Origin: a bacterium
GTDB taxonomy: Bacteria > JAAXHH01
Assembly: GCA_965262815.1 (NCBI GenBank)
Contig: OZ253560.1
Coordinates: 2,547,287 to 2,611,286, forward strand
Reading direction: 5' to 3'
DNA length: 64,000 nucleotides
Positions within the stretch are counted from its first letter, which is position 1; each line of letters begins with the position of its first letter. Below are positions 3,963 through 50,675 of this stretch, one piece after another. The notes beneath the pieces were generated by a model. It did no database searches, was not told the origin of the DNA, and saw nothing but the letters and a program-made list of their open reading frames with translations. The position numbers and the translations under genes are program-made.

Positions 3963-3969
3963 GCGTGTC

Positions 3970-9164: not shown

Positions 9165-9391
9165 TTAGTCGAATCAGGATATACAGATAGATCGGTCGGC
9201 GGACGCTGCTTCCAGGGAACATCTATCCTTGAACTCGTCGATCAAGATAAACCGGCGGGGGGCAAAGTCAAGCACTAAACGTTTTTATTTGTTGATATAA
9301 AAACAGGCGCTTGTTATATGTCTAATCCAGCACGGTTTCACCCGGTTTCAGAGGCTTAAACCGGTCGGTTTCACCCAGTCAGGGGAGTAGC

Positions 9392-10258
9392 ATGATGCCG
9401 AACGCACAGATCGCGGTCATCGGCGGTACGGGGTTCTACGGGATGGAGGGCCTGACGGATATCGAGGAAGTCCGTCCCGCCACCCCCTTCGGGGATCCGA
9501 GCGACGCCATCGTGGTCGGCACCCTCGAGGGCCGCCGCGTGGCGTTCCTCGCCCGCCACGGCCGGGGTCATCGCGTCGGACCATCTGAAATCAACGTACG
9601 GGCGAACATCTTCGCGCTGAAGACCCTGGGCGTCCGGTGGATCCTGTCGGTCAGCGCCGTGGGCAGTCTCCAGGATTGCATTCGACCGCGGGATTTCGTC
9701 ATACCGGATCAACTGTACGACCATACCCGCCACCGCACGACCAGCTTTTTCGGCGACGGCCTCGTGGCGCACGTGGGACTCGCCGAACCCTTCTGCGGAC
9801 CGTTGCGCCAACTACTCGTCGACGGCGCCGAATCGACGGGATTGACCGTACATCGCGGCGGTACCTATCTCTGCATGGAAGGACCTCAGTTCTCGACGAA
9901 GGCGGAATCGAATGTCTACCGGTCCTGGGGTTTTTCGGTCATCGGGATGACCGCGGCGCCGGAAGCCAAGCTCGCCCGGGAGGCGGAAATCTGCTACGGA
10001 GCCATCGCGTGTTCGACCGACTACGACTGCTGGCACGAGGAACACGATTCAGTCACGGTTGATATGATCATCGAGAATCTGCATGCGAACGTGGACCAGG
10101 CGCGCCAGGTCGTCCGCCACGTCGTGCCGGCCATTCCCCTGGAAAGCACGTGCCGTTGTCACAACGCCCTGGCCAATGCCATCGTTTCAGATCGCGGTAC
10201 GGTGCCCGCAGAAACACTGGAGAAGCTGAATCCGATCGTGGGCCGGTATTTCAAATAG
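9392..10258 (+). CDS. mtnP: S-methyl-5'-thioadenosine phosphorylase
   Basis: PNP/MTAP family: IAVIGGTGFY, …SVSAVGSL…, …CMEGPQFSTKAESN…. Confidence 0.8.
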   Translation: MMPNAQIAVIGGTGFYGMEGLTDIEEVRPATPFGDPSDAIVVGTLEGRRVAFLARHGRGHRVGPSEINVRANIFALKTLGVRWILSVSAVGSLQDCIRPRDFVIPDQLYDHTRHRTTSFFGDGLVAHVGLAEPFCGPLRQLLVDGAESTGLTVHRGGTYLCMEGPQFSTKAESNVYRSWGFSVIGMTAAPEAKLAREAEICYGAIACSTDYDCWHEEHDSVTVDMIIENLHANVDQARQVVRHVVPAIPLESTCRCHNALANAIVSDRGTVPAETLEKLNPIVGRYFK

Positions 10259-20673: not shown

Positions 20674-20683
20674 CGAGGTCCTC

Positions 20684-34455: not shown

Positions 34456-35754
34456 ATGATACCTAGTACGATTCGTAATAAGTTAAACCTGAGTATCGCT
34501 CTGCCAGGGAGCAAATCCGTTACGCTCAGAAACCTGGTACTCGCCGCGCTGGCCGAGGGAACCACCGAGATTGTGGATCCGTGCGACTGCAATGACACCC
34601 GGGAGATGGTGGAATGCCTGGGAAACCTTGGTATATCCATCAAGGCTGGTGATGACTATCGCAAGGTAACCGTGGATGGGAGGGGCGGCCGTTTCGCGAA
34701 GGGTCCCGTTACCCTCGGCCTTGGACTCAGCGGCACATCCGCACGTTTCCTTATTGCCTTATCTGCCCTGAGAAATGACGTAACCCAGCTGGATGGACGC
34801 GGCAGCCTGAACGAAAGGCCAAACCTACCCTTGCTGGATGCCATCGAACAACTGGGAGGGGAAACGGTATCTTCCGACGGTGGATGTCTGCCAGTATCTG
34901 TCAGGGGACCCGAAAAGTTCGAACGGGCGGTCACGATGAAAGGCGATGTATCGAGCCAGTTCTTCTCTGCCCTGTTGCAGATCGCGCCGATGCTGCCCGA
35001 CGGTCTTGAAATATCCGTGGACGGTGAACTCGTCAGCCGGCCGTACATCGACATTACGCTCAACGAAATGCGCAAGTTTGGCGTCCGCGTAGTGAACGAC
35101 GCGTACGGTAAATTCACTGTGGCCAGGCAGAATTACCGCCCTGGTCTCCTGACGGTGGAAGGGGATGCATCAGCTGGTTCCTACTTCGCTGCCCTGGCCC
35201 TGATTCACGGCGGGAAGGTGATCTTCGAGAACCTTGGAGCGGATACCCGGCAGGGAGATATACGGTTCCTTTCGATATGTGAAAGGCTGGGAGCCCGCAT
35301 CCAGGTGGACGAAGATAGGACCGTTATCGAAGGACCGAATGATGGCTGTGTTTTACCGCCAGGTGGTGAAATAGACTGCGGAGACATTCCAGACGCGGCG
35401 TTGACCCTTATCGCGATCGCACCGCTGATACCCGGCACTACACGGATTACGGGCATCGGCACGCTCAAGAACAAGGAATGCGACCGGATCGAATCGCCAG
35501 CCGCGGAACTGCGGAAAATCGGAGTGGACGTGACGACCGGCGGCAACTACATCGAAGTATCGGAATTACCGGCAAGTGCGCTTAACGCTTCTGATATCAT
35601 CGACATCGAAACCTATCACGACCACCGCATGGCCATGAGCTTCGCCGTGCTGGGCACCTGCCTGGGGAACCTGAACATCCTCGACCCGGACGTTGTCGGG
35701 AAAACCTATCCGCAGTTTTGGGAGGATCTGGCTAGAATCAGAATATCGAAGTAA
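34456..35754 (+). CDS. aroA: 3-phosphoshikimate 1-carboxyvinyltransferase (EPSP synthase)
   Basis: 432 aa with the LPGSKS motif and two-domain EPSPS architecture. Preceded by a ~100-bp very AT-rich stretch and visibly lower GC than the upstream genes. Confidence 0.85.
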   Translation: MIPSTIRNKLNLSIALPGSKSVTLRNLVLAALAEGTTEIVDPCDCNDTREMVECLGNLGISIKAGDDYRKVTVDGRGGRFAKGPVTLGLGLSGTSARFLIALSALRNDVTQLDGRGSLNERPNLPLLDAIEQLGGETVSSDGGCLPVSVRGPEKFERAVTMKGDVSSQFFSALLQIAPMLPDGLEISVDGELVSRPYIDITLNEMRKFGVRVVNDAYGKFTVARQNYRPGLLTVEGDASAGSYFAALALIHGGKVIFENLGADTRQGDIRFLSICERLGARIQVDEDRTVIEGPNDGCVLPPGGEIDCGDIPDAALTLIAIAPLIPGTTRITGIGTLKNKECDRIESPAAELRKIGVDVTTGGNYIEVSELPASALNASDIIDIETYHDHRMAMSFAVLGTCLGNLNILDPDVVGKTYPQFWEDLARIRISK

Positions 35755-36101: not shown

Positions 36102-39100
36102 TTATGATCCTCCTAGCGACTGATATACCCATCCGGGACGTCTTAGCAAGTTGAAAGTATCCAATGTTGTCGGGTTAAAGTCACGACAACTTGCTATCAC
36201 TTCCTCTAGCAATTCTACGGGATGTCTTAAATTCCATAGGGGATGGACCACTAAGACCAGCTTGTTGCCTACTTCCAAACCCGGAAGTAATCCGAAGTCA
36301 CGTGGCCTCGCGGAGAAAGACGTACAAAATGTATCCCGGAGCCTAGCAGCGTGTTCGCACCATCCTTCCAAATCAGGAACGGCGAATACCCCGTTTACAC
36401 CACAGTCAAAGCTGTCAGAATGTAGGCAACGCAACAATGAAACTCCGAGTCTCCAATCCAGCAATCCGTGATACCCCATGTTCCGGTAGTTCCTAAGGCA
36501 ATTGTAGCAAGATGAATCGCAGACCGACCTGTGATCACGGTGTAAGACTGAACCAGCAAAGCTGTCGGACTCGGCATCGGAATTCGTTACCAATGCCAGC
36601 AAGTCTTCCCAATTATCGTAAATGTAATTCGTGAATCCAGCGCCGTTGGCCAAGTGATCGCTAATTACAATTTCGCCTACTTTTGTCCCGTCTCCTAACT
36701 CGACCTGCCTCACGTTACTAATGTCAAACTCGTCGGGATCAATGTCGAGTTCTTCGGCGGCAATAGCTTTGAGAATGAAAGCTGCGGAATAGTAAGCGGC
36801 TTTTATTCCGACTGCTCCTACCGGATCCATCCAAAGACCCGGACGGACTGACTCAGGCCTGATGCGCAACACATCTGTGGATTTAGGCGAAACAATAGCA
36901 ATGGATTCAGTCTCGGTGGTCGTTGTGAAGTTTAGTTGGTCGGCCTCTTGGAACCGATTATCTATCCATTGATTCTCCAACCTTCGCCCGGTACTCCCGC
37001 GTTGTGCTGTACCAACCGCGCCTTTAAACAGGCGTCCTAGCCTATCGTTTACCCGGTACACTCGTCCCGATTTGGAAAAAGAGATCGCGCTATTGGTTCC
37101 AACCGATGCCATACAAGGAACCCCGTCCGATTCAGCGACCGTAGAGGCCCCGGTAGGTAGAAACTCGTCGTCCTCAACAGCATCACTCCCCGGACCAAGG
37201 CTTGCACGGAAAGCCAACGGTACCGCGAATTGGAATGTTCGAAAAGCTGGGTCATTCTCGTTTCCACATCCGCACTTGGGACAGGACTCATCTTGCGGGT
37301 TGTCGTCATACGTAGCAGTATAATGGCACTGTCCGCAACTTGACATCCATCTCCGTGGGGACAATGGATCGTTTGTACTTGTGCACCATCGGTTCTCCCT
37401 TCTTAACAGAGGAGCGGTGAAACCAATTGCCTGGTATACACGCTTATCTTTAGTTCTCTGGGAGCCGGGCGCGAACTCTGTAATGGCTAGGTCAAGGTCC
37501 CTGTGGGTTGTAAGGGCGTCTGTGCTACGCAACCCATGGTAAAATAGCCTGACACGAGAAGGCATACCGTACATGGGTAGAACTGCGTATTCAGCTAACC
37601 TTTCTGCCAAGCCGTCGCCTGTGATTTCAGGATTGGCACACGCTTCCCCAATTTTGATGCAAAGTTCATTCCTCGCATAATTTACAATGTCGCTTTTTCG
37701 AATAGTGCCCGCCACACCTGTACACAAGGCATCTGCGATTGACGTGACATCCGTCGCAGAAGAAAGCCAATTTTTGACTGATTCTCTCCTGTATTGGTCA
37801 TCAATCCAACCGGCTGTCATCCCGAACTCGCCATGACTATCAGGTGGACGCGGGCTTTCCCACCAGGGAACTCCGGCGGCATGGAATGCTCGTCGTAAGC
37901 ATTCCTTTGCCATAAGCCTCTGTGCAATGTCTAGACGCCCCATCGATAGGAAAGGTACTGGCGGAGGATCGCCCGTAATTCGCTCGGGATGGTGATAGTA
38001 GAATTCGTCATGGCTTCGGCCCCGACAGATGGTGAGCACAGTCGCGAAGGGTTGTCCCCGCCGACCAGCGCGTCCTGATCGTTGCTGATAGTTAAAGCGC
38101 ATTGGTGGCATATTCCCTTGTACGACAGCTTGGAGACTGCCAATGTCAACGCCAACCTCCATAGTCGTGGTCACACTGAGCATATCGATTGCATCTACTT
38201 CTCGCACAAGCGGGTGGTACGGATCGTTATTAAGATCTACAGTAATGTCGCGGAACAGACGTTGTCGCTCTGGCTGATTATCCGTTTGGGCAGTAAGTTC
38301 CTCGGCATGCAGGCGTATCGGTTGCCGTAACTGCACCGCTTCCTTCGCGTAGTAGTTCTGCAAGTGCAGGTCACAACAAGTAGTGTTCGGATCACCCGGC
38401 AGTATATCCTGGCAGAATTGGCTAGTACAGATTCCTGGATTATATAAATGGGGGCGTCGGCATCTCGTGCAACGCCATACTGGATCCGTAGGGAGCGCGA
38501 CACGGACCAGCAGTCGGCGCGGATTGATTTTGAAATGCGTATGGCCACCGATAAAGCAAATTGCATCCCGTACTGTTTCCAATAAAGCGTCTTCACCAAC
38601 ACCGTGTACGTTCGCGCACTTTCTGACATAATTACGAATACCAGCCCGAGCGGTTGTCCAGTTCGGCCAGTCATCAATGGGGTAGGCGCCTGGATCTACT
38701 TGTGGGTAGCGATACAAATCCCCTAGCATTCTAATCGTGCCGTTGAGAATGTCCACAAGTTGGCCTTTAGCCAAGTCACATTCACCAGCTTTTTGCTCCA
38801 TTACCGAGTCCGGTAGGTCCGACTTGGCATAACCGAGGCCTGCCGACTCGAACCCGAAATACAGTCTAGAAAACAACACAGAGCAGATTTCACTGGTTAC
38901 TTTAGCACGCAGTTTCTCGCGTCCCCTTGTACTTCCAGATGGTGACAGATCAGGTTTCCAGCCACCGCCAGGACGAGAGAAATCGAACAGGGTCGTCCAT
39001 TTTTGCCAAGCATCATCATATTTAAACTCTTGAAACAGTACGTTTTGACCAGCTGGATTAACGCCGAGAGTCTTCAAACGTTGGATTAATGCCCCAGTTC

Positions 39101-41846
39101 CTCGTTCGGTGTTTTCGTCCTCAAAAAGTAAGCGCAGATGGACAGTGCGGCTCGCACCACGATCAGCTACTAGGGCTAGTTTCGCACGGGCATCTGCAAT
39201 GGTTTGTTCTGCCACCTCGCGCAATGCTTCAGGAAGGCTCGCCAGTGCGTTGCTATCGACAGTTTCTTGTTGTAAAAGTTCGCGAAAGTCGGATAGCAGA
39301 ACCTGTTGTATATTGGTGAGTTCCAAAGCTTCGCGGGAGGTAGGAGACCCAGTAGCTCGAAGTTTGGCTAACAAGGCTGGCTCCTCTATCGTAAATCTTC
39401 GCAATTCATCGTACATGGCCTCCCGCACTAAGTCCGAATAGTGCGACCTTTCTATCCCATTGGCGAGTTCTGCCGCATCCTGTCGACTGTCGGAGAAGAC
39501 GACTAGTTTCTTAGCATCTTCTGGCAGGAAATAGAACATTTCCTTGGAAAGAATCTGAGTGATACGACCAAAACCAGTGCGAAATCCCCGGATTGGAGAC
39601 TTTCGATACTGGCGGAATCTGTAATTCGCCGCGCACAACGGGCAAGTTGCGGGTAGGGCTCCTATTTCGCTCTCAGGCAAATTCGGAACTACATATGCGT
39701 AACCACGCACAGTACCCGTGGTGCCTAGCTTGACTTGCCCTGTAGCTGGGTCAAGGCTAGCAGCCATCCACCGAGCTTGGACTGTACTGCTACTGTTAAT
39801 GGGCTGTGGCCACTGACGTGAATCTGGGTCTAATTGCTGTCCACCGGATGGCCAGAAAACCCCGAAATCCCGGTAGGTTCGTCTGTCGACAAAGCGGGCT
39901 GATTGCCGATCTGGCAAACCCTCTATATCAGCATCAGTGATTAGAAGCTCCCAGCCACGATTTGCATCCAGTTCGTTCCTGCTACCTCCGAACATCGTCG
40001 TACCGCAAACTTCGCAGTAGAGTAGTTCCAATACCCGGTGGGATTCATCCAGATTATCGCACAGGATACGCGAGTTTTGAAAAAGTTTTCCGGAGGTACG
40101 ACCACCTCCCATTTCGGCAGAACTACAACCACATCCAGGTTGAGTGCAAGCCCAGAGGCCTTCGATATTTTTGAAGAACCAGTGTAGTCTGAATCTGGGC
40201 ATTCGTTCGCTGGCCCCACACAGCTGACGGGCGATTAGAAGGCCGCGGGTAGCCGACCGCACAACATCGTCTTCACAGTCGGTGCCGAACAAACGTTGTC
40301 CGAATTCACTCAAGCGAGTTGCTCTGGTTACGCCGTCTCTGGAACAAGCCGCCAGCATACGCGCACTCATCTGCAAATTTTCCACCTCCAGGCAATCTTC
40401 CAGTTTCCAGTCGCCTCCTTCCTGCACTTCGCCTGTTGAACTTAGAAATGCTGTCGCTACAGCTTTTGCATCTGGCTCCTTGTCCGCTGCGGTTTCTAGT
40501 TCTGCAATAGCAACAAAAGGCTCTACCTGAAGCTTACTCGACGTATCCCCGCCTGAAGTGTCCTCTGGATTGCCTGGAATTACCTGTAAACTAGTCCATT
40601 GGGAGCCAAAGAACTCGGATAGGTATCGTAGGCTATCGTCATCGTTTGGCTCCAACGACGCACTGGAACCAATAATGCGAAGTTTTGGGCTGTCTGGGTA
40701 GAGACCTAAGCGGAGCAGGAGTAACTTTAAGAGGTACGCGACTTCGGTTCCTGCTGTGCCGCGATGGAGATGTAGTTCGTCAATGATGAGATGGAAAACG
40801 CTGCCGTCTTTTTCCAGCCATTGCTTCGTTTTTTCGAAAATGCCGCTGTCTGCGTCTCGCATTAGCATCATACTGAGCATGCTAAAGTTCGTGACCAAGA
40901 TATCTGGTGGGTGGTCTTGCATATCCCATCGGCAGCGCATTTCTGCACCGTCCAGTCGTGGGAAGAAGTAACGGGCTTCCGTTTTCCCTGTATCGAAAAC
41001 GTGTTTTTCTGCCGCTATTGCGGCACCTTCGGCTTCCTTCAAGAGTGTTTTCAATCGCTCAATTCTCTGGCGGTCTGGTCTCTGTACGCCATTGGCGTTT
41101 GGTTGTAATAGCTCATGACCAGCTACTGGTGCATCTGAGTTATATCGTCCGAAGTAGAATCGATTTCCGTCGCGATTTCGGTCGAACCACTCCCGGACTC
41201 CAGGCGAGTCTAAGGCGGAGCGCAAACGGCTTAGCTGGTCTTCTACCAAAGCATTCATAGGATATACAATCAAACCGCGAATCGCGGCATCCCGGTTCTC
41301 ATTGCCACGCTGAGGGATTCTCAGACTTCTTTGAGCTATGTTTCCTGCAGGCCAACATTTATTGCGCCAGGCCTCATTACGCCACCAATCGTCTTGATGC
41401 GCCAGCCTTGGTTGCGGCTTGTCCCAGCCAGAGGATTCTTGGCACAGGTAGGCGAATAGCGGCAATAAGAATGCCTCGGTTTTTCCTGAGCCGGTTCCGG
41501 CTGTAACGACAGCGTTTGTCCCAGAAAGCACTTTGCTTAACATTTCGGCTTGATGACTATAAAGCTCGAAGTCGCCGATCAGCCCAAGAGACGTAAGCTC
41601 TTGGAAAGCAGTAATTCCCTCCGACCCCATACTAGGCAAATCCACCGCAGATAAATCCCTGATTTTCTTTCCTGAAGTCCGATACCTTGGAATGGGTTCT
41701 ATCCACGGTTCTTGAGAAATAGTACCGGGCTCCCTTAGTAATTTCTCGCGTTCCACCTCAAGACCCGGGTACTGGGTTCCAAATGCAGTTTTCACGTAAT
41801 CGATGTAGCTGTCGCGGACCTTATCAAAAGCATTTATGAAATCCAT
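36102..41846 (-). CDS. giant split DExH helicase with C-terminal DUF1998-type zinc-finger domain (DruE-like Druantia signature protein)
   Basis: 1914 aa. Helicase motif I TAGTGSGKT (~aa 117), II IIDELH (~aa 355), III GSSAS. After a ~750-aa insertion, motif V TTTMEVGVDIG and motif VI QRSGRAGRRG (~aa 1200-1230). Cys pairs CGQCHY…CPKCGC and the C-terminal CDSSCYNCLRNY…LLDWRLG resemble the DUF1998/MrfA zinc-finger domain. The start overlaps the upstream gene by 13 nt. Confidence 0.7.
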   Translation of the reverse strand: MDFINAFDKVRDSYIDYVKTAFGTQYPGLEVEREKLLREPGTISQEPWIEPIPRYRTSGKKIRDLSAVDLPSMGSEGITAFQELTSLGLIGDFELYSHQAEMLSKVLSGTNAVVTAGTGSGKTEAFLLPLFAYLCQESSGWDKPQPRLAHQDDWWRNEAWRNKCWPAGNIAQRSLRIPQRGNENRDAAIRGLIVYPMNALVEDQLSRLRSALDSPGVREWFDRNRDGNRFYFGRYNSDAPVAGHELLQPNANGVQRPDRQRIERLKTLLKEAEGAAIAAEKHVFDTGKTEARYFFPRLDGAEMRCRWDMQDHPPDILVTNFSMLSMMLMRDADSGIFEKTKQWLEKDGSVFHLIIDELHLHRGTAGTEVAYLLKLLLLRLGLYPDSPKLRIIGSSASLEPNDDDSLRYLSEFFGSQWTSLQVIPGNPEDTSGGDTSSKLQVEPFVAIAELETAADKEPDAKAVATAFLSSTGEVQEGGDWKLEDCLEVENLQMSARMLAACSRDGVTRATRLSEFGQRLFGTDCEDDVVRSATRGLLIARQLCGASERMPRFRLHWFFKNIEGLWACTQPGCGCSSAEMGGGRTSGKLFQNSRILCDNLDESHRVLELLYCEVCGTTMFGGSRNELDANRGWELLITDADIEGLPDRQSARFVDRRTYRDFGVFWPSGGQQLDPDSRQWPQPINSSSTVQARWMAASLDPATGQVKLGTTGTVRGYAYVVPNLPESEIGALPATCPLCAANYRFRQYRKSPIRGFRTGFGRITQILSKEMFYFLPEDAKKLVVFSDSRQDAAELANGIERSHYSDLVREAMYDELRRFTIEEPALLAKLRATGSPTSREALELTNIQQVLLSDFRELLQQETVDSNALASLPEALREVAEQTIADARAKLALVADRGASRTVHLRLLFEDENTERGTGALIQRLKTLGVNPAGQNVLFQEFKYDDAWQKWTTLFDFSRPGGGWKPDLSPSGSTRGREKLRAKVTSEICSVLFSRLYFGFESAGLGYAKSDLPDSVMEQKAGECDLAKGQLVDILNGTIRMLGDLYRYPQVDPGAYPIDDWPNWTTARAGIRNYVRKCANVHGVGEDALLETVRDAICFIGGHTHFKINPRRLLVRVALPTDPVWRCTRCRRPHLYNPGICTSQFCQDILPGDPNTTCCDLHLQNYYAKEAVQLRQPIRLHAEELTAQTDNQPERQRLFRDITVDLNNDPYHPLVREVDAIDMLSVTTTMEVGVDIGSLQAVVQGNMPPMRFNYQQRSGRAGRRGQPFATVLTICRGRSHDEFYYHHPERITGDPPPVPFLSMGRLDIAQRLMAKECLRRAFHAAGVPWWESPRPPDSHGEFGMTAGWIDDQYRRESVKNWLSSATDVTSIADALCTGVAGTIRKSDIVNYARNELCIKIGEACANPEITGDGLAERLAEYAVLPMYGMPSRVRLFYHGLRSTDALTTHRDLDLAITEFAPGSQRTKDKRVYQAIGFTAPLLRRENRWCTSTNDPLSPRRWMSSCGQCHYTATYDDNPQDESCPKCGCGNENDPAFRTFQFAVPLAFRASLGPGSDAVEDDEFLPTGASTVAESDGVPCMASVGTNSAISFSKSGRVYRVNDRLGRLFKGAVGTAQRGSTGRRLENQWIDNRFQEADQLNFTTTTETESIAIVSPKSTDVLRIRPESVRPGLWMDPVGAVGIKAAYYSAAFILKAIAAEELDIDPDEFDISNVRQVELGDGTKVGEIVISDHLANGAGFTNYIYDNWEDLLALVTNSDAESDSFAGSVLHRDHRSVCDSSCYNCLRNYRNMGYHGLLDWRLGVSLLRCLHSDSFDCGVNGVFAVPDLEGWCEHAARLRDTFCTSFSARPRDFGLLPGLEVGNKLVLVVHPLWNLRHPVELLEEVIASCRDFNPTTLDTFNLLRRPGWVYQSLGGS

Positions 41847-42832
41847 CGCTTTCCTTTCGCTTCGATGGGTTGTTGATTAAGTTTACTCGCTACCTCATTA
41901 AAGACACTAGGTGGTACGTCGTTATACACATAGGAACGTTGTGCTTCATTAGATGGCACTAGCCCTAGCACAGTTGAGCAATGTCCTCTGCACAGTCCAA
42001 AGGCTCTTGAGAATAAAGTAGGCAGAGGAGCACCGTATGGAACGCTAGCTCTCTTGATAGCCATATCGTATTGCAATACCCGGTGCGATGATAGGGCGAG
42101 GACAGCGTAACGTCCCCAGTCCAGTTCAACTTCTGCGGACTCACGATTCCGCCATAGGCGATAGTACCAGATGGATGTTACTGGGTTTTGGTACCTGCTT
42201 AACCGTAATTTTGAATCTATCCTGCTATTAGGTAGAAACTGCAATCTTTCCGTATCAAAATCCTGGCGACGCCAGTTCATCTCTGCTTCGTTTGACCACA
42301 CCAGACCTCGGCAATACTCTTGGAGTGAAGCAGACACTCGCGCCAATGAACGGGCAGGTGGGAAGTCGATAAAGCGGAGGTTAACACTGGCGGCAACATT
42401 ATGGATTTGAATGGAACTATCGGCACATAGTTCTATGCGTGTTGGCACGTATGGACACGATGCTAAATGTGGCCCCACGATGGTCTCAAAGCCACCTATA
42501 GTTGCTGCCTGTTGCAGGTTCTCAACACTCGCTGGAGACCTGGCTCCGCACAAAACTGCTCTGGCTACACCGCGACCTGGAAGTGCGGCTAGCACCGGGG
42601 GAGCGACGACGACCTTGATTTCATCCGAATCAAATTTCATGTCGATGTGACCGAGACAACTCAATGTGCGGAGAGCTTGCCACCGTGCGCTAGCGACAGG
42701 TTCATCAAATTTGGACTGCCCGTCTAATACCCCTCTCCTATGTACCTCCTCAAACCATCGCTTGACAATGGACCAAGGAACTTTACGCTTAGCAGAGAGT
42801 GCGAATAAGAAGATGTCACCACTGTTATACAC
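41834..42832 (-). CDS. hypothetical protein, DruG-like position in Druantia-type operon
   Basis: 332 aa with no recognisable motif. GTG start (verified: gtg tat aac agt ggt gac = MYNSGD) overlaps the upstream stop by 8 nt, and the stop overlaps the druE-like start, indicating translational coupling. Confidence 0.55.
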   Translation of the reverse strand: MYNSGDIFLFALSAKRKVPWSIVKRWFEEVHRRGVLDGQSKFDEPVASARWQALRTLSCLGHIDMKFDSDEIKVVVAPPVLAALPGRGVARAVLCGARSPASVENLQQAATIGGFETIVGPHLASCPYVPTRIELCADSSIQIHNVAASVNLRFIDFPPARSLARVSASLQEYCRGLVWSNEAEMNWRRQDFDTERLQFLPNSRIDSKLRLSRYQNPVTSIWYYRLWRNRESAEVELDWGRYAVLALSSHRVLQYDMAIKRASVPYGAPLPTLFSRAFGLCRGHCSTVLGLVPSNEAQRSYVYNDVPPSVFNEVASKLNQQPIEAKGKRWIS

Positions 42833-44873
42833 GTCTGGACAACTCTTGTATCTGATTCCACAACGAGCGTTCGTCCGGTTGTTCTGGCTGTAAGATGCGC
42901 TTGCGCCAGTGCCAAGTAACTTTCTTCCAGTCTTTCAATTTCCGACGTGTTGGGGTATCCAACGATCCAAGCGATATTGCCCCCAGCATTTCGCTAACAA
43001 AAACTGCTTTCCATTTCTTAGGTCGGATTTTTGTAATCACCCATGTTGGAATCCAATCGTTGGGGAAAGGCTCAGATGGCCAAGCAATGATTTGTCCGGG
43101 GTGCTGCCCGACCAGAAAACAACGCATCCTACACAGTTCGTATTCTAAATCCTCGAATACCTCCGCGGCTGAAGTTGTCGTTTCGACGATCTGGCCCTTG
43201 ATATATGCACCAGAGACAGATGTTTTATCACTATCAAATTGTGAGCTGATGGCGGAGGAATCTACGAAAATTTCGGGTTCTCCCGTAGGCAGGCTGTAGT
43301 CGCTTGTTAAAAATAGTGACTGCCGACACAGAACTAATTGGTCGGACCGCGCCTCTATGGTGATCCGGGACCCATTTGGAAGGTCACTTGGTAGAGTAAA
43401 AATACCGGCGGTAGCAGGGGATGATAGTAATACTTGATTGCAATAAACTTCAGTAGTCGGTGCCCCTCCGATTAACCGTACTGATGGAGGTGCGAAGAAA
43501 AAAAAGTTATTCCCATTGCCGCTACGGATTCCGCCTACCAACAGGAGTCGCAACCCCGATTGAAATGTCAGAATCGGAAACTCGTTTTTAACTGCCTCAT
43601 CGTCTATAGCGGTCTCGACGCTAGCAAATCGCCATGAATTCGGTAAACCCTGCACTATATCGAGACCATGAAACTCCCTGCATTGCGTAGTTGCCCATCG
43701 TTGCAAACGTGGCCAAGCATCCTCGGGGTAACTCAGGTAAAAAGGTTGTCCCAAGGGTAGAGTGGGTGTGTCAACAAGATCACTAATCCCTTCTGCCATA
43801 CCGCTGATGAATATCCTGACCGGATAGCCCTTAAGCCTCAACAGGTAATTGGGAGATTTCGACCGCATCGTTTTGCTGATACGCCAATCAAGCATGGATG
43901 CGTCAAAATGCTCTCCTGTGTTGTTGTTTTTTATTGGCAACGACCACCCATTCACGTCCTCATCGGCATGGAGTACATGATCTAGAGTAAGACCTGCTTC
44001 AGGAAACTCGTGATTTAACCTGCACCTGATAGATGATTTGGCAATTCCTGTAACCTGATCCAGCTCGATGCAAATCCGCAGTCCGCCGAGAGTTTGAGCC
44101 GATTGACCAAGGTTTATTTCTGACCCTGGCATCGTCCCATCCCAAGCCTCCAGTTCGTCATTGACAGCGTCAATTAACGCCCTGTGAAGTTCATCTTGAG
44201 GATTCTCCGCCATTAGGATAGTTCTGGTCCTCATAAGTCGTCTTGCGATATTACTACGCAACGCCATAGCGATTTCATCATCCGGGTGACTTGATGCCGG
44301 GTCTAAACCTGCTTTAAAGAAGACCCGTGGCAACACCTGTCTGTCTTGCTCTACTAGTATCGCTTGTGAAAGTGGATAACCTATGTGGACATGTCCGCCT
44401 ATTGAACGGGATTGGAAAATGCCTAGTTTACCTTGTCGGTCGAATACTGACCAGTTCTCCAGGTCATCCCAGAGTTCCCGCATTCGGTCGAACCAGCGCG
44501 GTGGACCACTTCTACCTTCATACATTAGTTGCGTCCATAGCCTGGGATAATAGGCGTGAGGTGCGAAATCTCCTTCAGCGCCGCTAGCGAGCACGAAAAA
44601 ACACAGATAGCCAACGTAGGGCGGGATATCTTGATTCCGGATCCTCCACCCAAGGAATTCATGGTAAGCTCGTTTACATATATGTTTTCCGTTCAGGTAT
44701 GGCGCCGATGGTTGCCCAGCGACTGCAGTACGGAAAGAACCAGCTTCCGGGATATCCCGACTTATCTCGTCGATAAGATCCTGGTTGACGTAAAGGTGTA
44801 CGTTATATCCCTCCATGTCGGGATTAAAGAACCAGGTAGCTAACTTATTGTTCCATTGACTATAGGCGTTCAT
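42825..44873 (-). CDS. hypothetical protein, DruF-like position in Druantia-type operon
   Basis: 682 aa with no recognisable motif. ATG at 44873..44871 verified. 27 nt downstream of the relic end of the glycosylase gene. Confidence 0.55.
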   Translation of the reverse strand: MNAYSQWNNKLATWFFNPDMEGYNVHLYVNQDLIDEISRDIPEAGSFRTAVAGQPSAPYLNGKHICKRAYHEFLGWRIRNQDIPPYVGYLCFFVLASGAEGDFAPHAYYPRLWTQLMYEGRSGPPRWFDRMRELWDDLENWSVFDRQGKLGIFQSRSIGGHVHIGYPLSQAILVEQDRQVLPRVFFKAGLDPASSHPDDEIAMALRSNIARRLMRTRTILMAENPQDELHRALIDAVNDELEAWDGTMPGSEINLGQSAQTLGGLRICIELDQVTGIAKSSIRCRLNHEFPEAGLTLDHVLHADEDVNGWSLPIKNNNTGEHFDASMLDWRISKTMRSKSPNYLLRLKGYPVRIFISGMAEGISDLVDTPTLPLGQPFYLSYPEDAWPRLQRWATTQCREFHGLDIVQGLPNSWRFASVETAIDDEAVKNEFPILTFQSGLRLLLVGGIRSGNGNNFFFFAPPSVRLIGGAPTTEVYCNQVLLSSPATAGIFTLPSDLPNGSRITIEARSDQLVLCRQSLFLTSDYSLPTGEPEIFVDSSAISSQFDSDKTSVSGAYIKGQIVETTTSAAEVFEDLEYELCRMRCFLVGQHPGQIIAWPSEPFPNDWIPTWVITKIRPKKWKAVFVSEMLGAISLGSLDTPTRRKLKDWKKVTWHWRKRILQPEQPDERSLWNQIQELSRRV

Positions 44874-44899
44874 GGTCGGTCATCCCGAATGTGTTGTAT

Positions 44900-45019
44900 T
44901 CATACAATCGGCCCTTGTTTGGCATACACACACTTTGCTGCAATGGGGCAATCGATACATAGAGGTGTCCGTGATTTGCAGATAAGGGCTACAAAGTCAA
45001 GCAATCCGTAATTATGCTC
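44900..45019 (-). pseudogene. 3' fragment of the IS-split HhH-GPD glycosylase gene ([4Fe-4S] loop)
   Basis: Reading the minus strand from the TSD copy at 45021 gives EHNYGLLDFVALICKSRTPLCIDCPIAAKCVYAKQGPIV*. C-X6-C-X2-C-X5-C is the EndoIII/MutY/Mig Fe-S cluster loop, in frame with the upstream part once the IS and one TSD copy are removed. Confidence 0.8.
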
Positions 45020-45062
45020 CTTGATGTTACCCCGTTTTCGTGGACGGTTTACGGTTTGGGAT

Positions 45063-45875
45063 TCAGGCAGTTTTCTTGAACCTCCTTTCGAAGTTCATGG
45101 GTGAGAGGTATCCAAGGGAAGAGTGTCTTCTCCGGGTGTTGTAGAAGCCCTCGATGTATTGGAACAGGGCGAGTCTGGCGTCGGCCCTGGTGGTAAAGCG
45201 CCTGCGATCGAGCAGTTCGCATTCCAGGCTGGCGAAGAAGCTCTCGCACAGCGCGTTGTCGTAGCAGTCGCCGACCGAACCCATTGAGGGTCTGACCCCG
45301 GCCTGTCTGCATCTTTTGCCGAAGGCCACCGAGGTGTACTGCGATCCCTGGTCGCTGTGGTGGATCACCGCGTGGGGTCTGCGCATTCCAAGGGCCATGT
45401 CGAGGGCGTCTGTGACCAGTTCGCTTCGCAGGTGGTTGGCCATGGACCAGCCGACGACGCGACGGCTGAAGGCGTCTATGACCACCGAGAGATAGAGGAA
45501 GCCCGCATGGGTAGGCACGTAAGTGATGTCGGCGACCCACAGCCGATCCCTGACAGGAGCGCTGAAGTCCCGGTTGACCAGGTCCGGCGCCTTCTTGCTT
45601 TCTTCGGATCGCCAGGTGGTGCGCACGGCTCTGCGGCGTGATACTCCACTGATAGCGGCCATGCGCATCAGGCGGGCAACGCGTTTTCGTCCTGCGCGTA
45701 TGCCCGACGCGCGCAGTTCGGCATGGATGCGCGGCGCGCCGTAGGTACCGTAGGAGCGTTGATGGATCGAGCGGATCCTGCTAAGAAGCATAGCATCCTC
45801 TCTGGTCCTCTTGGAGACCACCCGCCTGAGCCAGACGTAGTAGCCGCTGGGGGAGACATCCAGCAGACCGCACAT
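45063..45875 (-). CDS. IS3-family transposase OrfB (DDE integrase core)
   Basis: …YPIRRMCGLLDVSPSGYYVW…, DDE catalytic region (…HHSDQGSQYTS…) and C-terminal YNTRRRHSSLGYLSP. The frame stays open upstream in the -1 frame relative to orfA. Confidence 0.9.
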   Translation of the reverse strand: MCGLLDVSPSGYYVWLRRVVSKRTREDAMLLSRIRSIHQRSYGTYGAPRIHAELRASGIRAGRKRVARLMRMAAISGVSRRRAVRTTWRSEESKKAPDLVNRDFSAPVRDRLWVADITYVPTHAGFLYLSVVIDAFSRRVVGWSMANHLRSELVTDALDMALGMRRPHAVIHHSDQGSQYTSVAFGKRCRQAGVRPSMGSVGDCYDNALCESFFASLECELLDRRRFTTRADARLALFQYIEGFYNTRRRHSSLGYLSPMNFERRFKKTA

Positions 45876-45907
45876 CCGGCGAATAGGATAGGAGGCCTGG
45901 CTTGCCT

Positions 45908-46219
45908 TTATGAACGAGAAGACTCGGGTGGGGTCTCGGTCTCCCGGGCGAACCAGGCCGCGGCTTTTGCCAGGATCTCTCGATCCATCCTGAGCTGTCT
46001 GTTCTCACGGCGCAGACGACGCAGTTCGGCCCGTTCTTCGGTTCTCAGGCCGTCTTCACGCCTGCCTTGGTCCAGGTCGTCCTGTTTGACCCAGTTGCGG
46101 ATGGCTTGGGCGGTGGGCTCGAACTCTTTGGCCAGCGCTTCGGGACTACGGCCGGCGCGAACGAGATCGACCATCTGCTGGCGAAAGGCCGACGGATAGG
46201 GGGCACGGGATCTGGGCAT
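45908..46219 (-). CDS. IS3-family transposase OrfA (HTH)
   Basis: 103 aa with a helix-turn-helix and leucine-zipper-like RRLRRENRQLRMDREILAKAAAWFA. orfB is in the -1 frame. A-rich slippery stretch CAAAAG around 45964-45970. Confidence 0.85.
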   Translation of the reverse strand: MPRSRAPYPSAFRQQMVDLVRAGRSPEALAKEFEPTAQAIRNWVKQDDLDQGRREDGLRTEERAELRRLRRENRQLRMDREILAKAAAWFARETETPPESSRS

Positions 46220-46231
46220 GTCACGCTCCTT

Positions 46232-46849
46232 TCAAACACAAGAAGTTACATGTCCACTAAACCGGGTCAACTCCACCTTATAGTACTTTTTTGGTAGTAG
46301 TGCCCTTGCGAAGTCCCAGATGATCTCAGCTCGCCTTATATCCGTTGGTGGTTTTAATCCTGTAAGCCGAGAGATTGTACGCACTATACTAAGGTCCACC
46401 ACTGGTACACGCTGTCCAAAGGCAAAGCTAGCGACAGCATGCGCAGTATAGATACCTACGTACGGTAATTTGACTAAATCATCGAGTTGAGTTGGCAGCT
46501 CTCTGGTTTGGGTTAATGACGAAGCGACGTCGAGAAGAGCTCTGACTCTTTGTTTTCCAAACCCTAATACCGCAATCATTTCGAACAGTTCGTCCGGATC
46601 AGCGTTAGACAACTTGCCAGCATCACTGTACTGGCCTATCAGCATCGGCCACACCATGGCAACTTTGTCAGCATGGGTCTGCTTAAGCAAGATTTCCGCT
46701 ATTAGGATTCCGAAAGGGCTGTTTTTTTCAGCTCTCCAAGGGAATGGCCTACCTAAAGTGGAGTACATTTGGACAAAGAAATCTTCTGCTATACCCAGCC
46801 TTGATGGATCGTAAACTGCCGCTTCATTCTGATTGGTCATGTGGATCAT
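46232..46849 (-). pseudogene. HhH-GPD superfamily DNA glycosylase (Mig/EndoIII-like), 3' end truncated by the IS3 insertion
   Basis: HhH-GPD motif LPYVGIYTAHAVASFAFGQRVPVVDLSIVRTISRLTG, with Tyr at the EndoIII Lys120 position and the catalytic Asp retained. The last 13 codons plus the stop (46275..46232) are IS-derived. The native Fe-S loop is displaced to 44900-45019. Confidence 0.75.
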
Positions 46850-46876
46850 CTAGAAAATGCCCCGTTTATCCGTATG

Positions 46877-47962
46877 CTATGCGCGCACAGAAACAAACCC
46901 AAAAGCTTCTACTATGGTGTTTGCGATCCCCTCAGCAAGTGGTGGTGGCACAGCGTCAGAAACCAAACGGACTTGTTCTGTAAATGTTCCCTCTAGCTGG
47001 TACGAATGTGTGAAGCCTTGAAGCAACATGGCTTCATAGACTGACAGACGCCTATGACAGTTAGGATGGACATGAACTTCGTTATGCCCGTATGCAACGG
47101 TGTAGCTGGGAGCATCCCATGACAGGACCTTGAAACTCAGACCATTGCTGCTACCTGCCAACAGACTACCGTTTGTAAATCTCGGGGACCGTGGAACCAT
47201 CGCGACATGGTTAGGATGATGCGGAATGTTTTTTGGCTCGAGCTTCTTTGCACAAAACGTAGGTTCAGGAAGGTTCTTAATAGCATTCTCAATCGCAGGG
47301 GGCGGATGACAATTCCCATCTAGTAGTCGAAGTTCAGTTTCCGGATGACGATTTCTATTTACCCCAACAGCGATCAGCCTCTTGCGATGCTGCGGCACAC
47401 CAAATGTCCCAGCATCCAGAATATTACTCATAACTTCGAACCCGGCTTGCCTAACTTCTTCCTTGAATTCACAAAAAGCTGTCTTGTGCTTAACGTGAAT
47501 GAGGCCAGGTACGTTTTCGAATACGAAGAAACCGATATCATAACGCTTTGCAAACGCGTTAATGATGCTGGCGTAACTGTCCAGCAATTTGCGTCTAGGA
47601 TCGTTTTCAGCTTGGTGGACATTAGATGAAGAAAAGGCTTGGCACGGTGGTCCTCCGATTATCCCTATAGGTTCCAGACCTTCAGCACAGTCTTCCCACA
47701 AATCTAGGATGGTCGTTGGCTCTACCGCAGCCAGATCAATAGAGCTGACCATGGTATTGGGGTGGTTACGCTTATAGGTTGCGATGGCAGCACGGTCAAT
47801 ATCGATTGCTAGAACTGGATGGAAACCTACCTTTTCAAAACCATGATCTAGCCCTCCTGCGCCACAGAACAGACTCATTACGGGCCAGCGGCCAACGGAT
47901 TTGGGAGAATTAGCGGGTTTTATCGAGCTCTCGGCGTAGTCCAAGAGATTCTCCTTCGTCAT
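46877..47962 (-). CDS. DNA (cytosine-5)-methyltransferase (druM-like)
   Basis: Motif I FCGAGG, motif IV GGPPCQAFS, motif VI ENVPGL and motif VIII QHRKRLIAVG. Confidence 0.9.
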   Translation of the reverse strand: MTKENLLDYAESSIKPANSPKSVGRWPVMSLFCGAGGLDHGFEKVGFHPVLAIDIDRAAIATYKRNHPNTMVSSIDLAAVEPTTILDLWEDCAEGLEPIGIIGGPPCQAFSSSNVHQAENDPRRKLLDSYASIINAFAKRYDIGFFVFENVPGLIHVKHKTAFCEFKEEVRQAGFEVMSNILDAGTFGVPQHRKRLIAVGVNRNRHPETELRLLDGNCHPPPAIENAIKNLPEPTFCAKKLEPKNIPHHPNHVAMVPRSPRFTNGSLLAGSSNGLSFKVLSWDAPSYTVAYGHNEVHVHPNCHRRLSVYEAMLLQGFTHSYQLEGTFTEQVRLVSDAVPPPLAEGIANTIVEAFGFVSVRA

Positions 47963-48974
47963 TTTAAGGCGTTAATCTGATCTTGGCAATATGTCTACAA
48001 GTCCGAATTAGACGATCATTTCCAATCACTGTTTTTCTTAAAGCTCATCTAACGGCTGGGACAAGAGCTTCTACTTGTCGATATAGTGTATGCATTACAG
48101 CCTCGAAGAGAGAAGTATCATATACCATACGTCTGAGGTACTGTTCCCAAGTAACTCACACATCGCTAAAACTTGGATATGGCAGAACTGCCCGGTTCAG
48201 TGAATTGGACCCCACACTGTACACTTCTCATGCAACAACGAGTTGACCCCAGTTAAGTCCATATGGTCCCTGCACGTACCAACATCTTACCACAAGTCTT
48301 AGTAGTCGCACACACTTGCATAGATTCCATGGTGTATTTCGAGGACATCGTGCAGATAAACTATAGGCTGCCTCTTGAAGCAGTGAAGCCCACTCGACCA
48401 GAATACCCTGAGCAAGCGGGGAAGACGGCCGTGCATGACAGGTAAGCTCTCGACTACCACCAATCATTTGTCTCCGCCGTAGTATTCATGTAAGTGCGGT
48501 AGTCCATGGTCATCAAAATACTAACGTATGACAATTCTATAGAAACAATAGAGTTCAGGGATTCTCATCATGAGGTCGCGCACCCAGCACTACTTGCGAT
48601 ATTGACTTGCCAGAAAGTTGTTTGTAAAAAGCATTCGGGTAGGATTCAATATCTTCTCCCCAAGCCCCAGACGGGGTTATACGTGGTGTTACAAAGCAAC
48701 CGCAGTCGTTCCACGCTATGGACACACCACATCTTGGTAGATATAACAGATCATCGTATCCCGCAGTACTGTCCGAGTACCTGAGCCATTTACGATATCC
48801 TTCTCGCGTTTACGCCTCGGTTGCCCGGATCATTTTTTACCACCTGGTTCGTTCATTTACAGGCTTTTCGAATCTGCCGTCGTCGCAGTGTTCCTATTTC
48901 AGACGAGAGTATTACTGCCCGATGCCGACGGCACAACAAATAGGCTGAAAGGGAAGCTCTGGCGAGAAGGACAC

Positions 48975-50675
48975 CTACCGCCGTATATACAGATCCGTAA
49001 TCGTAGAGTTGTCGATGAAGAAGGGTTCCTGACCCATGGAGTCCTTTTGCCAGCCCGCCAGCCAGGGTTTGCGGAGCTGCAGGAAGTAGTCGTGGTACAG
49101 GAACACGCCGCCCACGTCTTCGACCAGGATCCGTTCCGCCTCGTTGTACATCTCGAATCGGCGTTCCTCGTCGGTTTCCCTCGCCGCCTCATCAATGAGC
49201 CGGTCGAACTCTGCGTTCATCCAGTCGTGACGCCCCGCTCCCACGGGCTGAGAGTGCCAGACCATGCCAAGGAGGTTGTGCGGATCGGGGAAATCGAACA
49301 TGAAGGGGATCATGCTGAAGTCGATCCGGTACTGGGCCATGGCTTCGCTGTAGACCCGGTTCTCCATGTTCCGTACGCCCACTTTAAGGCCCAGGTTGTT
49401 GGAAAGCATGCCCGATATGGCCTCGGCGGCCATGATCCGGTATGGATCGTTCCGCAGCCAGATATCCACGGACGGGAACCTCCTTCCGTTAGGGTATCCT
49501 GCCTCCGCCAACAGGCGCCTGGCCAGTTCTGGATCGAATCGCTGCACATCTTTCAACTTATCACCTGAATAACCTGGAAAACCCGGCGGAAGCATGGTGT
49601 ACGCGGGCAGGGCCGTACCCCGGAGCACGATATTGCAGAGTGCGTCCCGGTCGATAGCGTGGCTGATGGCCTGTCGCACCCTGTGGTCACTGAAAACGCC
49701 TTCGCGCGTCCGGAAGAAAAGGTAGATGGCATTGAAATCCATGTACTTGTGCAGTTCGGAACTCAGCTCAGGATCTCCCTCGACGCGGTTGAGATCCCGC
49801 ACGTCGATCTGCACCAGGTCCAGTTCGTCGTTCTCGTAGGATAGGAGCCCGGTGTTGCCCTGGTTCTTGAAGATGGAGTGGATCTCCGATAAATAACCCT
49901 TCACCGGCCCGTTGTAAAATGTGTCAAGGGATAGCGTGAGGCGCTCGCCGATACGCCAGCCTTCGACCTTGTAGGAGGAGTTACTGACGACGTTTTCGTC
50001 GCTCGCCCAGCGAGGACCGAATCTCTCCACCTGCCAGCGCGGTACGGGAATCGACGTGAAAAACGCCGCTATCATCGGCAGGTAGGGGCAGGGGCCCTCG
50101 GTCTCGATCACGAGGGTCATGTCATCCTCCGCGTACACGCCCACCGAGCTAGGATCGGTGTTCTGCCCCGTGTTGAACGCCCGGGCGCCCTTGATATTGT
50201 AGTAGAAAAAGGCGTACCCGCTGCCCGATGCGGGGTCCAGCATGCGCTTGTAGCTGTATTCGAAATCGTGGGCCGTCACCGGCCGGCCGTCGCTCCACCG
50301 GGCGCCGGACCGCATCTGAAAAGTCCAGCGGGTCTGGTCCTCCGACGAAGTCCATTCGGAAGCGGCGCCGGGGATCACGCGGTTGTTGTGGTCCAGCATG
50401 GTCAGACGTTCGAAGAGGAAGACGATGCCGCCCACCTCGTAGATGGCCATGCCGATGTCCAGATTGGTCGGTTCGTCGTTCAGAAAACGGAAAACCTGGC
50501 GGTCCGGGGGCGCCGCATCCGCGGGCATCGCCTTGCCGACTGCGTTGCGCACCTGCGCTTCCGGGTGACTTGTAAACACGGAGAGGCCGCAGATCGTCAG
50601 AAGCAGCGCAGTTACAAGTATGGCAGCATATTTCATGTGTGTTACCACCGCGTTATGAGTATTCAGCCTCATCAT
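48975..50675 (-). CDS. ABC transporter substrate-binding protein, family 5 (paralogue of 24315-26102)
   Basis: 566 aa with a signal peptide (likely start at Met14, MKYAAILVTALLL). Shares blocks with the other SBP (…WSDGRPVTAHDFE… / …NYDFPDPH…). No transporter partners. Confidence 0.7.
   Translation of the reverse strand: MMRLNTHNAVVTHMKYAAILVTALLLTICGLSVFTSHPEAQVRNAVGKAMPADAAPPDRQVFRFLNDEPTNLDIGMAIYEVGGIVFLFERLTMLDHNNRVIPGAASEWTSSEDQTRWTFQMRSGARWSDGRPVTAHDFEYSYKRMLDPASGSGYAFFYYNIKGARAFNTGQNTDPSSVGVYAEDDMTLVIETEGPCPYLPMIAAFFTSIPVPRWQVERFGPRWASDENVVSNSSYKVEGWRIGERLTLSLDTFYNGPVKGYLSEIHSIFKNQGNTGLLSYENDELDLVQIDVRDLNRVEGDPELSSELHKYMDFNAIYLFFRTREGVFSDHRVRQAISHAIDRDALCNIVLRGTALPAYTMLPPGFPGYSGDKLKDVQRFDPELARRLLAEAGYPNGRRFPSVDIWLRNDPYRIMAAEAISGMLSNNLGLKVGVRNMENRVYSEAMAQYRIDFSMIPFMFDFPDPHNLLGMVWHSQPVGAGRHDWMNAEFDRLIDEAARETDEERRFEMYNEAERILVEDVGGVFLYHDYFLQLRKPWLAGWQKDSMGQEPFFIDNSTITDLYIRR

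Follow-up and report, generated by a model that had tools for sequence, protein, structure and literature searches.

A Druantia operon with a methyltransferase gene and an interrupted glycosylase gene

We analysed a 64,000-nucleotide stretch of bacterial DNA (GenBank assembly GCA_965262815.1, contig OZ253560.1, positions 2,547,287 to 2,611,286; hereafter the window, whose own numbering is used throughout), focusing on a gene for a DNA glycosylase of the helix-hairpin-helix (HhH-GPD) type that lies beside a gene for a C5-cytosine DNA methyltransferase. A previous examination of the letters and their open reading frames (ORFs), called here the sequence-only reading, had placed this pair at 46232-47962 within a defence operon, and had proposed that the glycosylase acts on the T:G mismatches left by deamination of 5-methylcytosine. 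Both ORFs are indeed found, on the minus strand: the methyltransferase, of 361 amino acids (aa), is intact and occupies 46877..47962, and it is followed by a 205-aa glycosylase ORF at 46849..46232, the gap between them being exactly 27 nucleotides (nt; 46850-46876). Position 46232, however, is not the end of the glycosylase gene, and an insertion sequence (IS) is found there at 46275..45022.

Three further genes follow on the same strand. The first encodes DruF (682 aa, 42825..44873), which matches the PADLOC models DruF4 (1.4e-156) and DruF2 (1.4e-136) over their full length; the second encodes DruL (332 aa, 41834..42832; PADLOC DruL4, 3.9e-60), and the third the helicase DruE (1914 aa, 36102..41846), with full-length matches at E = 0 to both DruE2 and DruE4 and with the Pfam domains DEAD and Helicase_C. 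There are overlaps of 8 nt between DruL and DruF and of 13 nt between DruE and DruL. Given these matches, the defence operon proposed from the letters is a Druantia system, and the locus is a five-gene Druantia operon in the order C5-methyltransferase, glycosylase, DruF, DruL, DruE.

The methyltransferase (47962..46877) is recognized by Pfam (PF00145, 2.5e-52), PADLOC (DruM2 as the best match, 4.6e-74, and MTase_II, 1e-70) and NCBIfam (dcm TIGR00675, 152 bits for a cutoff of 100.65), and its translation retains intact FCGAGG, PPCQAFS and ENV motifs. Its best relative of solved structure is M.HaeIII, which modifies GGCC (1.3e-29, full length). We did not assign GGCC as the target motif of the window enzyme, an identity of about 30% to M.HaeIII being insufficient for this. 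With a DruM-like methyltransferase present and DruG absent, the locus fits neither of the two closest Druantia definitions exactly. Its DruF, DruL and DruE match, over their full length, the models of type IV (DruF-DruL-DruE) and type II (DruM-DruF-DruG-DruE) systems. Unlike type IV, which PADLOC defines without DruM and DruG (PMC8565338), it carries a methyltransferase and a glycosylase gene, and unlike type II, which requires both DruM and DruG, it has no DruG.

An IS3-family element truncates the glycosylase gene

The 205-aa ORF proved to be a chimera. An IS3-family element of 1254 bp (45022..46275, minus strand) is inserted after codon 191 of the glycosylase gene, as indicated by its TG..CA ends, its imperfect terminal inverted repeats and a 3-bp AGG target duplication (46278-46276 and 45021-45019). 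Its two transposase ORFs, orfA (46219..45908) and orfB (45875..45063), are oriented like the operon and carry the Pfam domains HTH_Tnp_1, HTH_21, rve and rve_3; the element is present once in the window. The 5' part of the glycosylase gene (46276..46849, minus strand) thus comprises codons 1-191 and the first base of codon 192, includes one AGG copy (46278-46276), encodes Glu52, Tyr134 and Asp152 and bears the match to HhH-GPD (PF00730; 5e-12 for the 205-aa ORF), while the first 44 nt of the element (46275..46232) supply a false C-terminal tail and a stop, the last 14 codons of the ORF (VELTRFSGHVTSCV) being IS sequence. The 3' remnant (44900..45021, minus strand) opens with the second AGG copy (45021-45019) and contains codons 192-230 and the stop codon (44902-44900).

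Removing the element together with one AGG copy restores a 230-aa ORF ending in ...KKYYKEHNYGLLDFVALICKSRTPLCIDCPIAAKCVYAKQGPIV*, with its stop at 44900, 26 nt from the start of druF. The restored C-terminus (45018..44900) carries an HNYGLLDF motif and a C-x6-C-x2-C-x5-C [4Fe-4S] cluster loop, whose four cysteines are C205, C212, C215 and C221. An allele with an empty site exists: the metagenome contig L111 is 99.73% identical to the IS-deleted window over 4844 nt in one piece, and encodes the predicted glycosylase C-terminus exactly and contiguously. The coverage of this long-read contig is 2x and a few frameshift errors are present, but it reads across the junction with no IS. Because an allele this close to the window lacks the element, the insertion is recent. 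An assembly artefact is unlikely, as the IS-bearing version, with an identical 205-aa product, is recorded on two contigs.

In the genome studied here, residues 192-230 of the glycosylase, 39 in all, are therefore replaced by 14 IS-encoded residues. Since the HNY motif and all four cluster cysteines are lost, the glycosylase of this genome is very probably inactive. By contrast, the methyltransferase, DruF, DruL and DruE are all full length. The partnership is thus broken in this genome, the glycosylase gene being interrupted and its iron-sulfur domain gone; the sequence-only reading does not mention the interruption. The element also parts druFLE from whatever promoter drives the methyltransferase gene; in a promoter and terminator scan of 44800-49000 the counts stayed at chance level. 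The IS-disrupted and IS-free alleles, 99.7% identical, constitute a natural pair in which C-to-T changes at methylated sites could be compared.

The restored protein is closest to the thymine glycosylase Mig.MthI

Against the sequences of the Protein Data Bank (PDB), the restored protein finds as its best match 1KEA, the mismatch glycosylase Mig.MthI of the Methanothermobacter plasmid pFV1 (94.6 bits, 6.3e-26, residues 27-225 against 18-217). MutY proteins follow at about 1e-20 (at most 78 bits), and then EndoIII proteins, whose E-values run from 1e-15 to 3e-5; E. coli Nth scores 27 bits. The structural comparison gave the same order. P0004, an intact orthologue with 70% identity to the restored protein, was modelled with AlphaFold2 (AF2) from a 73-sequence alignment, and the model displayed a two-domain all-helical fold (pLDDT 86.6, pTM 0.84). 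The top Foldseek match of the model was again 1KEA (E 7.8e-13, TM 0.82/0.87, root-mean-square deviation 2.1 A), followed by MutY cores and then by EndoIII. A neighbour-joining tree was computed for 82 family members; being rough, distance-based and devoid of support values, it is used only qualitatively. The family stands apart in it from MutY and Nth, and its subclades roughly follow the type of system in which the genes are found.

Residues were then compared in HMMER and MAFFT alignments, with an E. coli Nth reference identical to 2ABK. The helix-hairpin-helix and the Gly/Pro-rich loop with the catalytic Asp are present (LPYVGIYTAHAV...VVD152). The GIYTAHAV and VVDLS strings singled out by the sequence-only reading were both recovered: Tyr134 (GIYTAH) aligns with Lys120 of Nth and with Tyr126 of Mig.MthI, and Asp152 (VVDLS) with Asp138 of Nth and Asp144 of Mig.MthI. 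In addition, Glu52 aligns with Glu42 of Mig.MthI. Tyr134, Asp152, Glu52 and the four cluster cysteines are invariant in 73 homologues. We considered whether a shifted alignment could bring a lysine into the EndoIII position and ruled this out, because the LPxVGxYTA hairpin anchors the column; the only nearby Lys is K127 (LVKLP), which precedes this hairpin by 7 residues and falls opposite a position of Nth that is not catalytic. The comparison with Mig.MthI, MutY and Nth thus places the protein in the Mig/MutY branch, neither grouping it with EndoIII nor restoring the lysine, and the proposal of a monofunctional mismatch glycosylase rather than an EndoIII is supported at the level of the protein sequence.

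The tyrosine also bears on another activity that a gene adjoining a 5-methylcytosine-writing enzyme brings to mind. DEMETER/ROS1-type enzymes are bifunctional and use a catalytic Lys. A glycosylase of this kind, acting on 5-methylcytosine or another modified base, would edit or erase the methylation of its neighbour, and DEMETER and ROS1 are themselves HhH-GPD [4Fe-4S] enzymes (PMC3045615). We regard this possibility as highly improbable: the family has an invariant Tyr where DEMETER and ROS1 have the catalytic Lys, its nearest relatives are Mig and MutY, and excision of the product of a co-expressed, and sometimes fused, methyltransferase would amount to a futile and genotoxic cycle.

The pocket residues were examined for what they say about the excised base. 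Recognition of thymine by Mig is attributed to Phe27, Arg47, Ala50 and Leu187, and recognition of adenine by MutY to Leu, Gln, Val45 and Gln182 at the same places (PMC2714593). Phe36 and Ala60 of the window protein correspond to Phe27 and Ala50 of Mig, where MutY has Leu and Val. At the position of Arg47, the window protein has Gln, as does MutY; at that of Leu187 it has an invariant Tyr. This residue is hydrophobic or aromatic, as are the Leu or Trp that other homologues linked to methyltransferases carry at this place, and differs in this from the Gln or Glu of MutY. The sequence thus points to a monofunctional, cluster-bearing enzyme of the Mig/MutY branch, with a predicted pocket that is Mig-like but not identical to that of Mig and that is suggestive rather than conclusive as to the substrate.

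Could the gene instead encode a housekeeping MutY-type adenine glycosylase or an EndoIII that lies beside a methyltransferase by chance? Its best NCBIfam match is mutY (TIGR01084), and the National Center for Biotechnology Information (NCBI) labels several plasmid homologues as 'A/G-specific adenine glycosylase'. The scores, however, fall far below the cutoffs, for mutY (135 bits against 286.5) as well as for nth (TIGR01083; 66.9 bits against 211.7). Moreover, the 230-aa protein, which aligns nearly end to end with 1KEA, lacks the C-terminal 8-oxoG-recognition domain of MutY, the adenine-specificity positions Val45 and Gln182 are occupied by Ala and Tyr, and the EndoIII lysine is replaced by Tyr. 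The gene context, described below, further weakens this explanation. Searches with Pfam revealed neither a Vsr domain (PF03852) nor a nuclease domain in the window protein. A PADLOC match to 'Type II nicking endonuclease' (PDLC03398) was discarded as independent support, as this model is in effect Mig.MthI itself.

The protein thus shares with Mig.MthI, a T/G and U/G mismatch glycosylase, the fold of a [4Fe-4S] HhH-GPD enzyme of about 220-230 aa without extra domain, the Tyr at the EndoIII Lys position, the catalytic Asp and Glu, the Phe and Ala of the thymine pocket and the linkage of its gene to a C5-cytosine methyltransferase gene, which in pFV1 belongs to the MthTI system. It departs from Mig.MthI by its membership of a bacterial subfamily with an invariant HNYGLLDF motif, by Tyr for Leu187 and Gln for Arg47, and by its association with the helicase-based defence operons Druantia and DISARM-like, besides restriction-modification (R-M) systems, sometimes as a methyltransferase fusion. 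MutY, second-closest by sequence and by structure, has the same catalytic Glu and Asp and a like cluster loop, but differs by its C-terminal NUDIX-like domain.

The glycosylase accompanies the methyltransferase in other Druantia loci

A protein search returned 248 relatives at E <= 1e-10, most of them of about 230-245 aa. All four of the relatives that were looked up (55-79% identical) lie in the same operon, methyltransferase-glycosylase-DruF (about 680 aa)-DruL (about 330 aa)-DruE (about 1915 aa), in chromosomal neighbourhoods that differ from one another. One genome per species was then scanned with a DruF alignment, yielding 20 Druantia loci that were annotated by tblastn and ORF inspection. 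Methyltransferase and glycosylase genes stand directly upstream of druF in six Chloroflexota loci and one Terriglobia locus, and an Actinomycetota locus has the same gene order with frameshifts in the glycosylase and DruF genes. In a Thermoanaerobaculaceae locus (L027, 18841-20589), the two proteins are fused in a single product of 582 aa containing PF00145, PF00730 and the EndoIII cluster motif; this fusion is encoded after DruE, on the opposite strand, from which it follows that the pair moves as a unit.

Two further observations connect the glycosylase with methylation. First, the five Druantia loci without a methyltransferase in reach all lack the glycosylase as well, and still carry DruF, DruL and DruE. 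Second, an Omnitrophica locus (L028, 10910-12479) encodes a PD-(D/E)XK nuclease, a C5-methyltransferase and then an overlapping Vsr (PF03852, 2.3e-28), which occupies the slot held by the glycosylase in other Druantia loci; this is the only locus in which Vsr was found. Vsr, a nicking endonuclease of the PD-(D/E)XK-like kind whose cut falls 5' of the T, is unrelated to a base-excision glycosylase in protein and in chemistry. The resemblance of the glycosylase and its methyltransferase to the E. coli Vsr/Dcm pair is therefore one of functional analogy only, with a presumed T:G correction in common and a small repair gene placed right after, or overlapping, the methyltransferase gene.

Several of these loci show decay or additional genes. 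In L006 and L011, from a Dehalococcoidia chromosome, DruE is split by a 241-aa ORF on the opposite strand; the Actinomycetota locus (L030, 8148-12737) is frameshifted, and L007, on a low-coverage contig, is fragmented. An extra nuclease gene, DruK-like or Cas4-like PD-(D/E)XK or HNH, follows DruE in L005, L006, L028 and L073, and extra nuclease genes are also found in L010 (19583-20473) and L100 (8656-9975).

A C5-methyltransferase is the constant partner across systems

We extended the survey to metagenomes, where a scan with the glycosylase alignment gave 80 relatives at 37-52% identity. Of these, 38 loci have at least 1.1 kb of sequence to either side; a C5-methyltransferase lies within 500 nt in 33 of them and at 0.7-1.7 kb in 3 more, where a gene for an HNH nuclease or some other gene intervenes. 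The 2 others, which have no methyltransferase in the available sequence, lie both at the edge of a DISARM-like DrmB-DrmA pair. Across all 80 relatives, 53 have a methyltransferase within 400 nt (37 upstream and 6 downstream on the same strand, 9 convergent and 1 divergent), and these methyltransferases belong to several lineages. Two more fusions, L088 (589-2349) and L105 (6861-8639), are indicated by the lack of stops between two tblastn matches. This brings the number of methyltransferase-glycosylase fusions to three, of about 582-592 aa, of which L027 is confirmed by Pfam.

These associations, together with the location of the window gene in a low-G+C island among defence genes, are at odds with a chance placement, and we consider a housekeeping MutY or EndoIII very unlikely.

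The accompanying systems are diverse. Of the 45 loci whose sequence extends for 2.5 kb or more on one side, 13 were Druantia, 11 DISARM-like and 21 other, the latter including a locus with a methyltransferase, the glycosylase and a type II restriction endonuclease (L035; REase_II, 7e-84) and two with a methyltransferase, an HNH protein and the glycosylase (L058 and L102). In the DISARM-like loci, PADLOC matches reached 4e-213 for DrmA and 1e-77 for DrmB. The ends of DISARM-like operons carry the glycosylase, usually with a C5-methyltransferase, in L046, L062, L068, L092, L098 and L109, and also in L053 and L085. Plasmids provide further cases: Caldicellulosiruptor pCALKR01 encodes a PLD endonuclease, a methyltransferase and a 'base excision DNA repair protein', the methyltransferase and glycosylase genes overlap on a Thermus plasmid, and they are about 500 nt apart on a Haloplanus plasmid. 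On pFV1, mig lies about 1 kb from the M.MthTI gene, with a restriction gene of the NgoPII family and one small ORF in between, so that the close linkage cited in the sequence-only reading is real, although the two genes are not strictly adjacent. A scan of viral contigs with the family motifs found no relatives.

Taken together, these data identify a bacterial Mig-like subfamily that is a regular methyltransferase companion in Druantia type IV/II-like, DISARM-like and type II R-M systems, sometimes fused to the methyltransferase and exchangeable for Vsr. Proteins of this kind are already known; their defence context in Druantia and DISARM-like systems is not described in the literature searched (full text and the YprA/Druantia survey), in which no glycosylase gene is reported for any Druantia type or for DISARM. 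The finding supplies an accessory gene to Druantia definitions, PADLOC describing type IV as devoid of a methyltransferase.

A proposed repair partner for the methyltransferase, or a possible component of immunity

The pairing of a 5-methylcytosine writer with a T:G repair partner is an established principle, exemplified by Dcm/Vsr and M.MthTI/Mig.MthI, and removal of T from T:G mismatches has been demonstrated experimentally for Mig.MthI. We propose that the glycosylase is likewise the repair partner of the methyltransferase, correcting the T:G mismatches that arise by deamination of 5-methylcytosine, and assign this reading a probability of about 0.7. It is supported by gene context, namely the methyltransferase partner, which is constant whether the effector is DruFLE, DrmAB or a classical endonuclease, or possibly where there is none, the three fusions, the substitution by Vsr in one Druantia locus and the absence of the glycosylase from Druantia loci without a methyltransferase in reach, while activity on T/G would follow from kinship with Mig.MthI. 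The same observations make the earlier comparison with very-short-patch repair a reasonable analogy. The methyltransferase would place 5-methylcytosine at its target motif in host DNA, presumably as a self mark for DruFLE. Spontaneous deamination would convert some of these bases into thymine, leaving T:G mismatches to which uracil glycosylase is blind. The 230-aa glycosylase would flip out the mismatched T, and probably also U, and cut the glycosidic bond by means of Asp152 and Glu52; Tyr134 stands where EndoIII has its lyase lysine. General base-excision repair would then restore C from the abasic site. The glycosylase would thus do for this methyltransferase the job that Vsr does for Dcm, by a different enzyme. 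The glycosylase companion, its fusions and its exchange for Vsr argue that these systems methylate the host genome enough for deamination to carry a cost. How Druantia or DISARM is thought to kill phage is unchanged by these results.

Several points weigh against this assignment. To our knowledge, no member of the HNYGLLDF subfamily has been characterised. Identity to Mig.MthI is only about 31%, and sequence similarity alone separates Mig from Nth weakly: with PDLC03398, the pFV1 protein scores 533 bits, the restored glycosylase 96.7 and E. coli Nth 73.8. A Tyr at the Lys120 position is also found in MutY of B. stearothermophilus (PMC2714593), and the changes of Arg47 to Gln and of Leu187 to Tyr mean that the substrate could differ from that of Mig. 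As the metagenome loci were fetched by two family motifs, the conservation of these motifs among them is circular, although their methyltransferase adjacency is not. Three cyanobacterial Druantia loci, from Microcoleus (L018, L020 and L025, about 8357-9532), carry a different C5-methyltransferase (391 aa, 31% identical) upstream of DruF with no adjacent glycosylase or Vsr, and no ORF of at least 80 aa was detected in the roughly 460 nt that follow it, indicating that a dedicated repair partner is not obligatory. Finally, the role of methylation as a self mark for Druantia is a presumption.

The sequence-only reading had also raised the possibility that the glycosylase contributes to the defence effector function. 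In one form of this idea, the glycosylase would act as a restriction glycosylase of the R.PabI type, removing bases at unmethylated foreign sites while the methyltransferase protects self; in another, it would detect phage DNA that is modified or damaged, or process it, thereby opening entry points for the DruE helicase. Where the flanking sequence suffices, the family is found in or beside known or candidate defence and R-M genes (Druantia, DISARM or type II R-M in the cases that could be classified), and base-excision restriction enzymes do exist (PMC10273834). END nucleases use EndoIII-like domains to sense modified bases (PMC12191111), a methyltransferase fusion would also suit a combined restriction-modification protein, and loss of the restriction component with retention of the methyltransferase, as in this genome, would be tolerated. 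Nevertheless, the only constant neighbour of the glycosylase is the C5-methyltransferase and not an effector. The glycosylase occurs with two unrelated helicase systems, and coexists with genuine restriction enzymes in the type II and HNH loci and on pFV1 and pCALKR01. It is missing from the Druantia loci that have kept DruF, DruL and DruE with no methyltransferase in reach, and the protein that takes its place in the Omnitrophica locus, Vsr, is a pure repair nuclease. The window protein does resemble the END nucleases in that an EndoIII-superfamily domain is encoded in a defence locus. In END nucleases, however, this domain no longer has its catalytic residues and is joined to a nuclease, whereas the glycosylase, either as a separate protein or as a methyltransferase fusion, keeps its Asp, Glu and cluster and has a repair enzyme as its closest characterised relative. 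An immune role of this kind is therefore disfavoured, and we judge it unlikely.

A narrower variant is that the glycosylase makes abasic sites or nicks at mismatched, deaminated or uracil sites of incoming DNA, which could serve as loading points for DruE or DrmA. DruE of related Druantia types has been reported to carry an inactivated Vsr-like domain (PMC12458937). We find this variant distinctly unlikely, and keep it in consideration since all well-resolved members of the family are encoded within or next to defence or R-M loci.

Surroundings of the operon

The operon block has a G+C content of 0.49-0.54, compared with about 0.60 in the flanks within the window, and is bordered by an EPSP synthase gene on one side and by an SBP_bac_5 solute-binding gene on the other. 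The DruE stop lies 347 nt from the convergent EPSP synthase gene (34456-35754), with no extra nuclease gene in this interval. A tRNA scan for an island integration site found none in the window. On the other side, the region of about 1 kb located 5' of the methyltransferase gene (47963-48974) is of lower G+C and contains no convincing gene; its small ORFs of 79 and 92 aa gave no Pfam match. In the syntenic relative L001, whose methyltransferase and DruE are 83% and 82% identical to those of the window, the corresponding region is just about 440 nt long. The metabolic genes that flank the operon in L001 include a FitA/PIN toxin-antitoxin pair, and past DruE lies a Type ISP restriction-modification gene (side genes at 3917-4614 and 19646-20729), whereas the counterpart side in the window has neither.

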